A stretch of DNA of 64,000 nt, taken from assembly GCF_003019035.1 (NCBI RefSeq), contig NZ_CP027447.1, one strand, 5' to 3'. This document shows, one piece after another, positions 19,170 to 27,276 of the stretch (positions are counted from its first letter, which is position 1; each line of letters opens with the position of its first letter). The notes beneath the pieces are model-generated. The model saw only the letters and a program-made list of their open reading frames with translations. It was not told where the DNA came from and made no database searches. A program made the translations under genes and the position numbers. The stretch is from Escherichia coli (GTDB taxonomy: Bacteria > Pseudomonadota > Gammaproteobacteria > Enterobacterales > Enterobacteriaceae).

Positions 19170-20129
19170 ATGAAAATTTGTATCGATGACGGCTCCACCA
19201 ACATCAAGCTGGCATGGACTGAGAACGGCGAACGCCGCAACGCCATCAGCCCGAACAGCTTCAAGTCGGAATGGTCTGCGCCGTTCGGTGGCACGCAGCC
19301 CGCGAACTACATGCTTGATGGCGTGCGCTATGGTTTTGATCCGGTCAGCGATCGCTTTGTCCAGACGACCGACACGCAATACCAGTACAGCGATGTGAAT
19401 GTCATTGCCATTCATCACGCGCTGGTCAAATCAGGCATCACACCACAGGAAGTGGATGTGGTTGTCACCCTGCCACTGAGCGAATATTTCGACACAAACG
19501 CACAGCCGGACATGGCCAACATCAACCGCAAAAAAGCAAACGTCATGCGCCCGGTGGCGTACCAGAACGGAAAAGCATTCACTATCCGTAACGTACGGGT
19601 TATGCCTGAATCCATTCCGGCTGGTTTTAAAGCACTGGCTGACATGAGTCCGTTTGAATCCCTGCTGATTGTGGATTTAGGCGGAACCACGCTGGATGTG
19701 GCAAAGGTTCAGGGACAACTGGCAGGTATCAGCCAGGTGTTTTGCGATCCACACGTAGGCGTTTCCCTGATGGCCGATGCCGTACTGTCGGTGATGGCCA
19801 CTAACGGTATGCGCACCAGTCACCACATCGCCAATACCATTATCGAACATCGCCATGATGAAGCCTGGCTGCGCCAGCACATCCACAATGACGCGCATTA
19901 CGCCAGCCTGATGGCGGTTATTCGTGAAAAGGAAGAAACACTGAAACAACGCGTGATCCGCGCGCTGGCGGTTTTTTCGGGTTACGGGCGGGTGATGGTT
20001 GTCGGTGGCGGGGCGGAGATTGTGGCACCCGCTATCCGCGAAGCCTGCGGAGTTAATGCGACTTTCATCGCGGACGGGGTGCCACAATTTGCTCTGGTTA
20101 ATGGGCTGTACGCAATGAACAAGGAGTAA
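19170..20129 (+). CDS. ParM/StbA-family actin-like segregation ATPase
   Basis: 319 aa; IDDGSTNIKL, ISPNSFK, YSDVNV.A.HHAL, VMPESIPAG, LIVDLGGTTLD, VMVVGGGAE closely parallel plasmid R1 ParM. Confidence 0.85.
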   Translation: MKICIDDGSTNIKLAWTENGERRNAISPNSFKSEWSAPFGGTQPANYMLDGVRYGFDPVSDRFVQTTDTQYQYSDVNVIAIHHALVKSGITPQEVDVVVTLPLSEYFDTNAQPDMANINRKKANVMRPVAYQNGKAFTIRNVRVMPESIPAGFKALADMSPFESLLIVDLGGTTLDVAKVQGQLAGISQVFCDPHVGVSLMADAVLSVMATNGMRTSHHIANTIIEHRHDEAWLRQHIHNDAHYASLMAVIREKEETLKQRVIRALAVFSGYGRVMVVGGGAEIVAPAIREACGVNATFIADGVPQFALVNGLYAMNKE

Positions 20130-20133
20130 ACCA

Positions 20134-20445
20134 ATGACGACACCAACCAGAAGAATAAGTTTCTATCTGAAGCCAGCTGCCGTCAAGAACGAAGGAGAAG
20201 CATGCGCCTGGCTGGACAGTCTTACACCAGAAGCCCGCAAAAGCGGCCAACGCGTGGCTTTTCTGGCCGGGCTGGCACTTCTGAAGACGAATCCGGCAGA
20301 GGCTTACCGACTGGCCGCATGGGCTGATGATGAGATGTTACCTGTGACACAAATCAGCTCAAAAAAGTTTGAAGCACAGTCTGCACCAGTGGCTAAGATA
20401 ACCAGCCAGATGGCTGGGAATATCCGGGCGTTATTTCCTGAGTAA
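20134..20445 (+). CDS. ParR/StbB-like small DNA-binding adaptor
   Basis: 103 aa directly downstream of the ParM-like gene; ISFYLKP and LDSLTPEARKSGQRVAFLAGLAL parallel R1 ParR N-terminus. Confidence 0.7.
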   Translation: MTTPTRRISFYLKPAAVKNEGEACAWLDSLTPEARKSGQRVAFLAGLALLKTNPAEAYRLAAWADDEMLPVTQISSKKFEAQSAPVAKITSQMAGNIRALFPE

Positions 20446-20573
20446 AAGCATCTGCGCGAAAAATGCTCACGTTTATAGAGACAGTATCATTCCATTTGGC
20501 ACACTTACTTCAATAATCGATCTGTTAAACAAATAGATTGTCTATTATCTATCGATTAAAACGATCAATTATC

Positions 20574-20601
20574 TTGACAGTAATGTGCCTTTTTGTAAGA
20601 T
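20574..20601 (+). promoter_or_regulatory. Sigma70-like promoter (TTGACA-16-TAAGAT) with GATC overlapping the -10
   Basis: near-consensus -35/-10; three GATC sites at 20519, 20563 and 20599. Confidence 0.45.
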
Positions 20602-20707
20602 CGTTCGCATTGTGAGCGACAAGATAATTGCGCGGCATTGTCCATGCAAAACGCCCCAATAGCAGCAACTATTGGGGCGTAAAACTCGGTCGGACTCACT
20701 TAACCTG

Positions 20708-20793
20708 ATATGCGTGCCTTCCGAAGTAAATCAAAATGTGCGTCGTATATTTTATTGCTTACACGCACCTCTGTAAAGGCACGCATATTTTTC
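20708..20793 (+). terminator. Long hairpin (13-bp perfect stem, nested 6-bp inner stem) followed by T-run; attenuator or terminator
   Basis: ATATGCGTGCCTT (20708-20720) pairs with AAGGCACGCATAT (20776-20788), then TTTTT; lies between the promoter and the GTG start at 20810. Confidence 0.4.
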
Positions 20794-20809
20794 CTATGAG
20801 GTAAATAAA

Positions 20810-21079
20810 GTGCGGGCTAAAACAGGTATTTGCAAGAACCCTCATCGTTATAATCCAACATTTCTGTCTCTCCCTGAATATCAAGGACAAGAAGGTCGGC
20901 ACAAATGCGCTGCCTGTGCTTTTGAGCTAGGCATAAAAGATGCGCTTGAAGGACGCGCTATGGCTCAGAATGATTTAGTTTTAGCTAACATTCCGTTTAG
21001 CCAGGCTGGAACTGTAAGGCACAGAGATGCCTATGAAGCATATGTTCGTGGTTGGCGATTAATACACAGCAACAATTGA
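20810..21079 (+). CDS. Hypothetical 89-aa Cys/His-containing protein (prophage cargo)
   Basis: GTG start with GAGG 8 nt upstream; CKNPHRY...HKCAACAF suggests metal binding; followed by a clean intrinsic terminator. Confidence 0.5.
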   Translation: MRAKTGICKNPHRYNPTFLSLPEYQGQEGRHKCAACAFELGIKDALEGRAMAQNDLVLANIPFSQAGTVRHRDAYEAYVRGWRLIHSNN

Positions 21080-21087
21080 TACTTTTG

Positions 21088-21112
21088 AAGCGCCGATAAG
21101 GCGCTTTTTTTG
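21088..21112 (+). terminator. Rho-independent terminator
   Basis: AAGCGCC-loop-GGCGCTT stem followed by TTTTTTT directly after stop at 21079. Confidence 0.6.
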
Positions 21113-21565
21113 TTTGCACGATAGTGCACAAGTTTGCACAATTTTTTTGAACGACTTTTTGTACTTCCGGCCCGCGTGGTGGCTGGATCCGTCAAGGATC
21201 CGTACGTGCACAAAAATACGCGTTTTTTCTGCGCGCAGGTGACGGGGGAACAGCCCGCGTTTCAGGGGGTAAATAGCATTCCCTTAACGATGTCGCAGCG
21301 ACATGACAGAATGGCCGTATTTCTCACGCTGAGCGTGAAAAATACGTGAGGGATTCTGCTTTGATGGGGTGAAAGGTAAGGCCGTCAAAATCGCACTGAG
21401 GCGGCGAGAACATGCAGTCAGCGCAGTGGGATTGCGTAAGAGTCTGACCGTCGATGATGGCAATAAGCAGGAAAGCGTCGTGAAATTATCTGACTGATAC
21501 AGGAGCTGGAGAGTCGGGGCATAAATTTTTTATGCCCCGGCGAAGCAGCAGACAAGCGAAGCGCG

Positions 21566-22612
21566 TCAGGATGTGGGCTGGGTATCTAACAGTGCGTAAG
21601 GGTTAAAGCGGATCACCTCTTCGCCAAGCCAGTCATTGATGTGCTTCATGGCCTCCATGACGGGCATCAGCTCGTTAATTGCGTAAACCCGCGCGGCCTT
21701 CTCCACATCACCAAACGCACTTTTTTCGCCCGGCATCGCCCCCATCAGTTGCGGCGGAACGCGGTGCGCAGCCAGCACATCATCACGGGATGCCGCCTTA
21801 ACATTCATGAACTCATCTTTTGCGGTGATCTGCTGGAACGGCAAAATTTGCACCCCCTCTTTGCCCCCGTTGGGCGCATGAATGAGCACGTTTTTAAACG
21901 CACCACCACCACGTGCCCCCTGTAGCGTTTCTTTCAGGGAGTCCATGCTTTCGCGGTTTACCTGCGCTGCACCGATGTAGATGATGCACCCGGCGTGGGA
22001 TCCGTTGTCGTAGTACAGTTTTCTGAACATGTCCGCTGAATGAGAAAGGCTGGCCGAGAGTAATGCGCCAAGATATTCCGGCATGCCGTAGATTTCCTGG
22101 TTAATATCCGGATTCATCAGGTGGCACACTTTGCCAGGACGAAACTGGAACGCGTCCTTGCCATCCTGCACATACCACCATGATTCAAGATCGCTTCCGC
22201 GTCGCATGTATTTCGCCAGGGCGTGCCGTAATTTAAGCGGTTCGCCGAGCATATTGCTTCGAAGCTCAAGGAATGCGTTACCGAACACAAACCAGTCCAG
22301 CGCCAGCGCCGAGAAATCCTGCCGGGAAAGCAGCGGGTGCGGGATGTAGCAACCGAGTAATACATTGCGCTTAAAGTAAAGCGCAGACTGATGCCAGGAC
22401 GTTTGCCGGGCAGCTCTTGCCAGACCGTACCAGTCCACCGGGGTTTCATACCACCGCCCGTTATCAGCACAGTACATATTGTCCAGCAGGTCATGCCCGG
22501 TCAGGCGATAAGGACCATCAAATGTGAATGCACTGAGCGATGATTCTTTCCTGAGCGCATCAGCGAGATCAATGCGTGAACTCATGCGCACTTTTTTATT
22601 TTTTCTGCTCAT
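21566..22612 (-). CDS. Portal protein (P2 gpQ-like)
   Basis: 348 aa; position and size as P2 Q, co-oriented and coupled with terminase gene. Confidence 0.9.
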   Translation of the reverse strand: MSRKNKKVRMSSRIDLADALRKESSLSAFTFDGPYRLTGHDLLDNMYCADNGRWYETPVDWYGLARAARQTSWHQSALYFKRNVLLGCYIPHPLLSRQDFSALALDWFVFGNAFLELRSNMLGEPLKLRHALAKYMRRGSDLESWWYVQDGKDAFQFRPGKVCHLMNPDINQEIYGMPEYLGALLSASLSHSADMFRKLYYDNGSHAGCIIYIGAAQVNRESMDSLKETLQGARGGGAFKNVLIHAPNGGKEGVQILPFQQITAKDEFMNVKAASRDDVLAAHRVPPQLMGAMPGEKSAFGDVEKAARVYAINELMPVMEAMKHINDWLGEEVIRFNPYALLDTQPTS

Positions 22613-24363
22613 CAGAACTCCATAACCGTGAAACGCTCGTTTTCTCCTTCGCCGCCAATCGGTTCGTTAATGACAGCAAGCATGGTTGCCCACGCAAGGT
22701 CGCCGTGGCTGATCCCCCTCGCTCGGTCCGTTTCGTAAGTGATAAAGCCGCCCGGTGTTTTCACCTTACGCACGGCGTTAAAGGCCGCGACCAGCTCGCG
22801 TTCGGCGCGATCGTATTCCCACCGCCCGGCACGCATTATTTGCAGCATTTTCAGTACCAGCGACCGTTTTGATGACAGCGTGAAGGTGTACGGAATAGCA
22901 GCAGGGAAAAACCGCTTCACTATCTGATAAACAGCCTCCCCGTTCCCGCCCGTCACATCAATGCCGATGTGTTCCACGTTGTAGCGATACGTGAACTCTT
23001 CAATGACTCTGGCCTGTTCTTCAAACTCCAGCCCCTGAACGCGTCGCGTCTCCACCGTTCGAAAACGGCCACCAGGAACAGCCGGAGGAACCACCACGGA
23101 CACAGCGCCGCTGTCGCCGTTGCCACTACTGCCGTTTGCGTCATACCCAATCCATACCGGACGATTCCCCATCGGGCGGGGAGCAAAAGGTTTCCAGTCT
23201 TTCCAGTCGTCGTATCCGTCAACACCACAGCCAATCAGGATATTCAGGTTAAATGCCGATTCCCCTTCGCGGACAAACTCACACATATAGAGATTGAGGA
23301 ACTCGTCTTCGGTGTTTTCATCACGAATTTCATCAATATCGGTGTGTTTCCAGCCGTGATTAACCACATCTTCCAGCGTGACAATTTGCCGCCACGTCCG
23401 GTCAGGGCAGATAAGCCCGTTATGCAGCGTTTTCCAGTCCACAGAAAAACGCTGGCGTTTATGCGTGGCCTTTTTCTCGTTCCAGCGGTCGCCGTTCCAG
23501 TAGGCGTATGCCTCGTGCGTTTCGGTGGATGGCGTGGAGAAGTAGGTGCGCCGCAGTCCGCTGAGGGTTGCCATAGCGCCAGCCACCTTGCGCAGTTCAG
23601 CAAAGCGACTGACCCAGAAAAATTCATCAAAATAAAAATTGCCCGTATAGGACTGTGCCGACGCAGCAGAAGTGCCGAGAAAATGCAGCTCTGCGCCGTT
23701 GGAGAGGATGATTTTATCACCCCCTTTCAGCTCCACATCAACTTCAGCCGCGGCCTTCTGAATAATGCTTTTAAACTGGAACGCCTGACGACGCGACGCA
23801 GACAAAAAAATCTGGTTACGCTGGTAAGGTTGCGCCACATCGTCACGCAGCGCCATCAGCAGCGCTTCCTGTGCAAAATACCAGGTCGCCCCAATCTGTC
23901 GGGATTTCAGGATCATCCTGTTACGTATCCCGGCTTCCCTGCAAAGGGTCAGGGAGTCAAACCAGCCCCGCTGATGCCACTCCAGCCTGCTGATGATTTT
24001 TTCCCGCAGTGCGGCAATCTGTTCCGGCGTGAAATGATTTTTGAGTTTTTTCGCCCGGCCTTTCTTTCCTGCGGCCATCACATCCGGCTGGCCATCATGC
24101 AGCTTTTTAAGCTGCCGGGTCAGCAGGTCTATTTCCTTAAAGTCACCGCCTGTTTTATTCTGTTTTTCAGTAAGCTGGATGAGGCGCGCATCGATGGACT
24201 GCGTGACACGCTGCACGGGTGGCGTTTCATCCCACTGGTCACGTTTTTTCCACGCATAAATCGTGTTCGGGTTTATTCCCATCAGACGTGATATTTCTGC
24301 GGGCGGATAACCCTGCCAGTAAAGTTGCCGCGCACGCTGGCGCACAAAAGCGTCCTGAATCAT
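22612..24363 (-). CDS. Terminase large (ATPase) subunit (P2 gpP-like)
   Basis: 583 aa; P-Q leftward operon divergent from capsid operon as in P2. Confidence 0.9.
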   Translation of the reverse strand: MIQDAFVRQRARQLYWQGYPPAEISRLMGINPNTIYAWKKRDQWDETPPVQRVTQSIDARLIQLTEKQNKTGGDFKEIDLLTRQLKKLHDGQPDVMAAGKKGRAKKLKNHFTPEQIAALREKIISRLEWHQRGWFDSLTLCREAGIRNRMILKSRQIGATWYFAQEALLMALRDDVAQPYQRNQIFLSASRRQAFQFKSIIQKAAAEVDVELKGGDKIILSNGAELHFLGTSAASAQSYTGNFYFDEFFWVSRFAELRKVAGAMATLSGLRRTYFSTPSTETHEAYAYWNGDRWNEKKATHKRQRFSVDWKTLHNGLICPDRTWRQIVTLEDVVNHGWKHTDIDEIRDENTEDEFLNLYMCEFVREGESAFNLNILIGCGVDGYDDWKDWKPFAPRPMGNRPVWIGYDANGSSGNGDSGAVSVVVPPAVPGGRFRTVETRRVQGLEFEEQARVIEEFTYRYNVEHIGIDVTGGNGEAVYQIVKRFFPAAIPYTFTLSSKRSLVLKMLQIMRAGRWEYDRAERELVAAFNAVRKVKTPGGFITYETDRARGISHGDLAWATMLAVINEPIGGEGENERFTVMEF

Positions 24364-26475: not shown

Positions 26476-27276
26476 ATGATTACTCCTGCACAGCAACACT
26501 GGCAGAACGTGATGGCACAGCGCGCAGGCCGGGCGAATGAAGGCGTGGACCACGCCGCGCGTACCGCGCATGAAGAGGTGCTGTATCGTCTGCGTCTGGC
26601 ACAGGCCCGGCTTAAGGGCGTACAGGCCAGAAGCGCGAAAGCCGCCATCAAAAAAGAGTTGTTGCCGGATTTTTCCGGCTGGATTGAGGGAACGCTGGAG
26701 GCTGACGGCGGGCAGCAGGATGAAGTGATTGCCACGCTGATGGTGTGGGCGATTGACTGTGGCGATCTTCCGCTTGCGCTGCGTATCGGCGCGTATGTGG
26801 TCCGTCACAACCTCATCATGCCGGATAACTTTGGCCGTACTGCTGCCACGGTACTGACCGAAGAAATCTGTAATCCGGTACTGACGCAGGCCGGGACGGA
26901 TGCCGACGCGGATTTGTCCGCCTTTATCGAACCACTGGACACCCTCCGGGAGATTGTCACCGACCAGGACATGCCGGACGAAGTGCGCGCCAAATTATGC
27001 AAAGCGTGCGCCTTTGCCCGCCGTGGCCTGAGTGATGCGGACAGCATGGCCCTGTCACTGAAGCTGCTGCGCGAAGCAATGCACCTGAACCCGAACGCAG
27101 GTGTGAAACGCGAGATTGCAACCCTTTCCCGCGCCCTGAAAAAAGCCGATTCCGCAGCCGCACCAGAAGACGCCAGCGCACAGCAGGCGCAGGACGAAAG
27201 CAGCAAAAGTAAAAAGACAACGCGGAAGCCTGCAACACGAAAAACCACCGCGACGCAGAAGGCGAAGCGCGGTTAA
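26476..27276 (+). CDS. Terminase endonuclease (small) subunit (P2 gpM-like)
   Basis: 266 aa; ELLP.F..W......L...GG.QD and DMPDEVRAKL resemble P2 M; basic C-terminal tail. Confidence 0.85.
   Translation: MITPAQQHWQNVMAQRAGRANEGVDHAARTAHEEVLYRLRLAQARLKGVQARSAKAAIKKELLPDFSGWIEGTLEADGGQQDEVIATLMVWAIDCGDLPLALRIGAYVVRHNLIMPDNFGRTAATVLTEEICNPVLTQAGTDADADLSAFIEPLDTLREIVTDQDMPDEVRAKLCKACAFARRGLSDADSMALSLKLLREAMHLNPNAGVKREIATLSRALKKADSAAAPEDASAQQAQDESSKSKKTTRKPATRKTTATQKAKRG

Follow-up and report, generated by a model that had tools for sequence, protein, structure and literature searches.

The gap that precedes the portal gene of a P88-like prophage in Escherichia coli very probably contains the cos site of this P2-family element, at ~21114–21271 with a cohesive end at ~21238–21256, together with a terminator-like RNA hairpin at 21515–21539. 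All positions refer to the window, the whole 64,000-nt stretch of contig NZ_CP027447.1 that was analysed. On sequence comparison, the site is a P2-family cos by its position, its architecture, its associated proteins and its sharing with satellites. A preliminary description of the window had expected cos within 21113–21565, and comparison with P2, 186 and P4 places the site at ~21114–21271, inside that interval. The same description had reported cos as not identified and had proposed a comparison with the cos regions of related phages; this comparison, made with P2, 186 and P4, locates the site and a homologue of the cohesive end at 21238–21256.

The prophage belongs to the P88-like group (Xuanwuvirus, Peduoviridae), with 92–97% identity to P88-like phages, and 1,181 of 5,426 complete E. 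coli genomes (~22%) carry the region. As judged from its sequence it is a distant relative of P2, so a diverged cos is to be expected. The gap extends from a cargo terminator (21087–21107 plus a T-run) to the portal stop codon (21566–21568, − strand), the terminator forming the left edge of the conserved gap, since conservation among relatives begins only 3′ of it. A P2-type terminase and a gpQ-like portal, the proteins expected beside a P2-family cos, are encoded next to the site (Table 1), and the large terminase subunit combines an N-terminal gpP-type HTH, an ATPase and an RNaseH-like nuclease domain by Pfam (Terminase_5/6N/6C). The gene order replication/cargo–cos–portal is the same as in P2 (old-cos-Q) and 186 (orf97-cos-W), and the G-rich cohesive-end strand reads toward the portal, as in P2. 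P2-like phages carry a cargo hotspot next to cos (PMC9122126), and the cargo hotspot of the window sits upstream of the site. An Rfam scan returned no family within the gap and only sub-threshold matches upstream, at 20645–20792.

Table 1 Features of the gap and of the neighbouring packaging genes in the window
Feature	Position	Strand	Remarks
Intrinsic terminator of cargo ORF 20810–21079	21087..21111	+	8-bp stem, 5-nt loop, T-run; dG −13.8, z −3.6
Distal repeats R1–R3, TGCAC at 21115, 21125 and 21135 (10-nt spacing)	21112..21142	+	contain GTTTGCAC; near-invariant in 28 dereplicated relatives
T-tracts (TTTTTTGA...CTTTTTG) and CCGGCCC block after R3	21143..21173	+	kept in the satellite and in other genera
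Variable GC-rich spacer with GGATCC-GTCAA-GGATCC	21174..21204	+	diverged counterpart of the GGCGCGGTCTGAG block
Proximal repeat R4 GTGCACAAAAAT, TGCAC at 21207 (−31)	21205..21217	+	counterpart of the P2/P4 TGCAT at −29
GCGCGCA	21231..21237	+	directly 5′ of the predicted top-strand nick; conserved
Predicted 19-nt cohesive end GGTGACGGGGGAACAGCCC, cosN equivalent	21238..21256	+	inferred nicks, uncertain by ~2–3 nt
G-rich right flank GCGTTTCAGGGGGTAAAT	21257..21275	+	end of the satellite-shared block
Second hairpin, 15-nt arms, outside cos	21316..21346	−	better as − strand RNA, dG −25.2, z −6.0
42-codon ORF, 5′ remnant of a 236-aa gene	21369..21497	+	junction 21493/21503; 60% identity to the N-terminus of the 236-aa product
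Hairpin module: outer GCTG/CAGC stem, 11+3+11 hairpin 21515–21539, invariant 26-nt tail to the portal stop	21503..21565	.	terminator-like 3′ hairpin between convergent units
Portal gene, gpQ homologue	21566..22612	−	47% identical to P2 Q; Pfam Phage_portal
Terminase large subunit, gpP homologue	22612..24363	−	44% identical to P2 P
Terminase small subunit, gpM homologue	26476..27276	+	36% identical to P2 M; Pfam Phage_term_smal

To obtain reference layouts, the circular cos junctions of P2, 186 and P4 were rebuilt from records that end at the annotated cohesive ends. In all three, TGCAT occurs at −123/−124, −111, −101 and −29 from the annotated left nick, and the window has TGCAC at −123, −113, −103 and −31 from position 21238, so that the proximal and the three distal TGCAT-type repeats all have a counterpart, as TGCAC. 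When both strands of the 64-kb window were searched for TGCAY motifs in sets of four at these distances (±2 nt), the layout turned up only at 21236–21239 on the + strand, and none of 200 shuffled windows contained it. Two of these repeats had been noted in the preliminary description as a GTTTGCAC direct repeat, which is present at 21112–21119 and 21132–21139, a third copy (GTGCAC, 21124–21129) and a fourth (21206–21211) having been missed. Because its copies fall within the four-repeat layout, the GTTTGCAC repeat is the distal part of cos.

The sequences between and around the repeats also have counterparts elsewhere. The GGCGCGGTCTGAG block is present in P4 and in many relatives, GCGCGCA also precedes the P2-like 19-mers (GGCGAGGCGGGGG...) of four other loci (L135, L147, L151 and L171), and the CNCGC...GGGG pattern of the right flank is kept in other genera to about +33. 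Between P2 and P4, a block of ~55 bp is near-identical, running from the proximal TGCAT to 7 nt beyond the 19-mer, which we infer to be the "55-bp core" of the P2-family cos (Ziermann & Calendar 1990, in the form in which PMC3931495 and PMC5694545 cite it). In P2/P4 cosmids, a longer packaging-signal fragment with more of the DNA flanking cos gave a >10^4-fold higher transduction (PMC9594776), consistent with functional elements outside the 55-bp core.

Partition genes lie a short distance upstream of the site. The stretch 19170–20445, between the replication gene and the cargo hotspot, encodes an actin-like partition ATPase of the ParM/StbA type (319 aa) and a 103-aa Plasmid_stab_B protein, which is unusual for a P2-like phage that integrates. 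Centromeres of the parC type typically have short iterated repeats, and with these genes just upstream of the hotspot the TGCAC repeats could be read as a centromere for ParM/StbB, or else as an operator or promoter for the cargo hotspot, rather than as packaging elements. We consider this very unlikely, given that the same layout and the same distances to the nick recur in P2, 186 and P4, near whose cos sites no partition genes were noticed, short of a scan of these genomes. The layout recurs as well in the satellite-like element L004, which has no partition genes among its scanned proteins, and the repeats keep their place relative to the 19-mer even though the cargo upstream differs completely.

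Between the partition genes and the cargo ORF, ~365 nt (20445–20810) are without genes and dense in perfect inverted repeats (20651–20662/20669–20680, 20708–20720/20776–20788 and 20566–20576/20620–20630). This stretch has promoter-like sites on both strands and sub-threshold Rfam matches to antisense RNAs (ctRNA/sar) on the − strand at 20651–20680, and it may serve the 89-aa cargo ORF at 20810–21079, for which no Pfam match was found, as a regulatory or small-RNA region.

Conservation outlines the same site. In a set of 28 dereplicated relatives, <85% identical to each other, conservation starts exactly at R1, is high over R1–R3 with the T-tract, over R4 and over GCGCGCA with the 19-mer, and is lost ~33–35 nt past the start of the 19-mer. 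Within the P88-like prophages, the variable cargo stops and conservation begins at 21115. When loci were retrieved with the three distal repeats alone, the 19-mer not being used, the same 19-mer stood at offset 123 in 90 of 113 unique sequences, and the portal gene lay 250–1000 nt downstream in 140 of the 156 loci carrying the 17-mer. The repeat-retrieved loci also included intermediate ends, such as GGCGAGGCGGGGGAGCAAG directly after GCGCGCA, GGCGCGGCGGGGCTACCAC and GGCGCCGGGGGGACAGCGC, which link the 19-mer of the window to the P2 type. Four loci from IMG/VR (L135, L147, L151 and L171) combine TGCAC-type repeats with the P2-like end GGCGAGGCGGGGGAGCAAG and P2-like spacing (R4 at −29); this mixing of repeat and end types indicates that the recognition repeats and the nicking site vary independently.

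The predicted cohesive end GGTGACGGGGGAACAGCCC is identical to those of P2, 186 and phiRSA1 at 13/19, 11/19 and 11/18 positions, respectively, and the preliminary suspicion that the packaging site is divergent from P2 and 186 thus proved right. The accompanying statement that no P2- or 186-type 19-mer occurs is correct insofar as a search of the window with the P2 19-mer at up to three mismatches gave no match, so that this cos is not found by sequence identity alone, but it overlooked the ungapped 13/19 match at 21238–21256. Identity of at least 13/19 to the P2 end is reached at only 13 of the ~128,000 window positions and is not significant on its own; among the four positions that the repeat layout permits, 21238 is the best P2 match. 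Against the family type GGCG(A/T)GGCGGGGAAAGCA(C/T), the best match in the window is again 13/19 at 21238, within the spread of the published members. The published P2-family ends GGCGAGGCGGGGAAAGCAC, GGTGAGGCGGGGTCCAAC and GGCGTGGCGGGGAGACGAG, experimentally determined or deduced (PMC3931495; PMC5694545), differ to a comparable degree, so a divergence of the kind seen in the window is normal for the family. A literature search found no published mention of the cohesive-end sequence GGTGACGGGGGAACAGCCC, of a P88 cos or of an earlier description of the site, and no record of the phage collection or of IMG/VR starts or ends at GGTGACGGGGGAACAGCCC.

Within this cos, the cut might fall outside the register given by P2 homology, either with a top-strand nick at 21236 (CAGGTGACGGGGGAACAGC) or with an overhang longer or shifted by up to ~3 nt, a possibility that we regard as real yet unlikely. 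A nick at 21236 would put the repeats at −121, −111, −101 and −29, three of the four positions being those of P2, 186 and P4, and it would bring the CGGGGG core of the window into line with those of the bridging 19-mers; a shift would also suit one 32.5-kb metagenome contig that starts 3 nt past the 19-mer. However, identity to P2 falls to 10/19 in this register, as opposed to 13/19 at 21238, and the contig end is the end of a 146-nt block that is 94–98% shared by many phages and may be an assembly-graph break. Moreover, GCGCGCA stands directly 5′ of GG(C/T)GA both in the window type and in the P2-like bridging forms, and the 186 end reads GCA/GG (the slash marking the nick); together these junctions favour 21238 over 21236, and the nicks are placed accordingly at 21238 and 21256 in what follows.

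Two metagenome contigs terminate close to the predicted end, L214 (1–25; PPYF01370356.1, 32,523 nt) at 3 nt and L218 (1–45; ERZ1643251 NODE-1134, 31,753 nt) at 22 nt past the 19-mer. Each terminus falls on the edge of a block common to several elements; these termini could be physical, or the assembly graph could have broken where the shared cos block stops. The start of the P88_4B11 record LR595891, at window position 21159/21160, was considered as a mapped terminus and rejected, the junction being a clean permutation; nucleotide 1 of this record was set relative to reference genomes after end repeats had been trimmed (PMC6969025).

The site is also shared with satellite-like elements. One of these, L004 (1–11400 in E. 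coli NZ_CP051609.1, beside hpt), is 11.5 kb long and encodes an integrase, AlpA, an Icd-like protein, a Toprim primase, a second integrase, Ogr/Delta and a P2-family capsid protein, and it looks like a P4-like satellite with its own capsid gene. Its second integrase has 82% amino acid identity to the integrase of the window prophage, its capsid protein, 423 aa long, is a major capsid protein of the P2 family extended by ~120 aa at the N-terminus, and the element, which carries a P88-type cos, also encodes a 236-aa protein of unassigned function. The non-coding homology of L004 and of two further elements (L018 and L089) to the window is limited to 21115–21280, and between L004 and the window the two groups of repeats are almost invariant, as are 44 nt around the 19-mer. 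In P2 and P4, cos is the sole shared region (PMC9122126), and the sharing of the cos block alone by L004 and the window parallels this relationship, suggesting from sequence that such satellites may be packaged by P88-like helpers.

The cohesive ends of P2 are 19-nt 5′ overhangs. By homology, we propose that the TGCAC repeats at 21115, 21125, 21135 and 21207 are probable terminase recognition elements, which would be read by the gpM-like small subunit, by the N-terminal HTH of the gpP-like large subunit, or by both; all four repeats carry the same T-to-C change, suggesting a single co-evolved reader. The A/T tracts and the variable GC-rich spacer lie between the distal and the proximal repeats, and the bound repeats would position the nuclease of the large subunit to make staggered nicks around 21238 and 21256, leaving 19-nt 5′ cohesive ends whose length is assumed from P2. 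The portal–terminase genes would then be found on the left end, with the repeats and the cargo hotspot on the right. The 11+3+11 hairpin, situated between the convergent portal operon and the slot next to cos, would terminate or stabilise transcripts.

All of this presupposes a working site. Many prophages are defective, and this one might be so too, or might use headful packaging, with no functional cos and only a vestigial similarity to P2, but this is extremely improbable. P88 and P88_4B11 were recovered as infectious phages upon induction (PMC5285337; PMC6969025), the terminase is of P2 type, and the block, which a satellite has kept, is strongly conserved across genera and in >1,100 E. 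coli genomes.

A second element of the gap lies nearer to the portal gene. The preliminary description had reported a 25-bp perfect palindrome and, by implication, offered it as a packaging candidate. The palindrome is present, one base off at 21515–21539, as an inverted repeat of the form 11+3+11 rather than as a strict palindrome, its perfectly complementary 11-nt arms CGGGGCATAAA and TTTATGCCCCG flanking a TTT centre. Its role as a packaging candidate did not survive, given that it lies outside the block common to the satellite and to other genera and behaves as a hairpin at the 3′ end of the portal operon. The hairpin lies 26 nt past the portal stop and forms the stable GC-rich stem-loop expected of an intrinsic terminator, folding better than shuffled sequences on both strands (z = −4.4 on the − strand and −5.9 on the + strand). 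No U-tract follows it on either strand (ACUCUCC on the − strand, GCGAAGC on the + strand), and we therefore term it a terminator-equivalent and not a canonical intrinsic terminator; a terminator scan did not report it. Its A/T run lies inside the stem-loop.

The hairpin is near-invariant in 1,182 E. coli genomes, and 658 E. coli genomes have the surrounding 73-nt module at 99% identity or more. Among relatives, 4 of 21 pairs are altered on both sides, in five sequences, with none or one in slid controls. In another P2-like prophage, the module stands between convergent MarR-family and ogr genes and has a compensatory T-A to A-T change. Copies of the module with its 26-nt tail also occur at 80–84% identity in SPI-7-type ICEs (L181 5994–6070, L184 1488–1570 and L185 1472–1556), after + strand genes and upstream of an STY4528-family replication gene, with a stem of up to 21 bp. 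The stems of these ICE copies hold further compensatory and G-U changes, and the compensatory and G-U changes together indicate that pairing, not sequence, is maintained. The module appears to be a portable structured element common to unrelated mobile elements.

The perfect dyad symmetry, the A/T-rich centre and the GC clamps would equally suit a protein-binding DNA site, such as a recombinase (Xer-like) site or an operator, or an accessory element of cos, in place of an RNA hairpin. The missing U-tract and the invariance of the 26 nt after the palindrome point in the same direction, as do the inner halves GCATAA...TTATGC, which by our own reading by eye resemble the inner arms of dif/cer. 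Nevertheless, we hold such a DNA site to be distinctly unlikely, because the compensatory changes, including those of G-U type, preserve pairing and not sequence, the satellite and other genera have the cos block without the palindrome, and the palindrome always stands at the 3′ ends of genes. An Xer/dif-like site in particular was rejected by eye, with a spacer of 5 nt and not 6–8 and with mismatched outer arms.

As an RNA hairpin, the element at 21515–21539 is probably the equivalent of the terminators tQ of P2 and tW of 186, or a 3′-stabilising structure, being terminator-like by position and not a packaging element. As in the window, annotated tQ and tW are GC-clamped hairpins that separate the portal operon from cos, at a distance of a few to 26 nt from the portal stop, but tQ is followed by a T-run, which the window hairpin lacks. 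In other genera with this cos type, a GC-rich hairpin occupies the corresponding position, and the stretch after it is partly U-rich.

The hairpin is the fixed right border of a slot for insertions and deletions, and tQ and tW likewise bound a slot in which foreign DNA is found. The title of Dodd & Egan 1996, as cited in PMC5694545, tells of DNA replaced between cos and a terminator, and foreign genes have been noted between cos and the portal gene or its terminator (PMC5694545). About 21 of 140 related loci have ~600–700 extra nt between cos and the hairpin. In the window, the stretch had been described as non-coding, and the gap is real, but positions 21369–21497 are what is left of the 5′ part of a gene that a relative, E. 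coli NZ_CM148325.1, has in full (L182 561–1271); the 236-aa product of the intact gene has no Pfam match. Given this remnant, the stretch between cos and the hairpin at 21276–21502 is a small, second cargo slot that holds a gene remnant and a hairpin. The ORF at 21369–21497 is annotated as hypothetical in P88; we rejected it as a gene in its own right, with stops or frameshifts in ~10 of 82 alleles and with third codon positions that vary least. The second hairpin (21316–21346) is conserved within the P88-like phages, with a G-U pair on the − strand RNA, and one compensated variant was seen in a relative.

Taken as a whole, the site is a sequence variant of the known P2-family cos and does not overturn the understanding of these sites. 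It is like the cos of P2, 186 and P4 in its place between the replication/cargo module and the portal gene, in its four TGCAY repeats at nearly equal distances, in its GC-rich end starting GG(C/T)GA with the nick after GC(A/G), in its sharing with satellites and in the cargo hotspot beside it. By contrast, 6 of the 19 cohesive-end positions differ from P2, the repeats are all TGCAC where P2, 186 and P4 have TGCAT, and their distance to the 19-mer is 2 nt greater than in P2. The right flank GCGTTTC... weakly resembles TGCGCGC of P2, and the terminase proteins are 36–44% identical to those of P2.

Likewise diverged ends are found in phiRSA1 and phiRSY1 (Ralstonia) and in Smp131 (Stenotrophomonas), phiRSA1 having GGTGAGG where the window has GGTGACG. 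Unlike that of phiRSA1, the ends of phiRSY1 and Smp131 were assigned by analogy to P2 (PMC5694545; PMC3931495). All three keep a GGCGGGG core in the P2 register, whereas the core of the window is shifted and altered (GACGGGGGAAC); this comparison concerns the ends.

The logic is also that of lambda, whose cos consists of cosQ, cosN and cosB, with R elements bound by gpNu1, the small terminase subunit, an IHF bend and 12-nt ends. Both sites have short iterated repeats on one side of the nicking site and bendable A/T-rich DNA between, although the sequences and proteins are unrelated and the lambda repeats lie on the side packaged first.

The comparison places the packaging site of a very common group of E. 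coli prophages, which serves to define genome ends, to build cosmids or transducing particles for P88-like helpers and to recognise the satellites of these phages. We tentatively suggest, at somewhat less than even chance, that the switch from TGCAT to TGCAC together with the changed end marks a separate packaging-specificity class within the P2 family, with satellites of its own. Such a class would not cross-package with P2, 186 and P4 and would have dedicated satellites, including the 11.5-kb element that encodes its own P2-family capsid protein; it would also be abundant, with ~22% of complete E. coli genomes and many other P2-like loci in IMG/VR and metagenome contigs. If so, the cos sequence would partition helper–satellite networks, and the repeats would act as a specificity code of the terminase. 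The four-repeat TGCAY architecture is common to P2, 186, P4 and the P88-like group and reaches beyond the usually quoted 55-bp core, and it provides a simple hypothesis, testable by mutation, for how P2-family terminases recognise their DNA.
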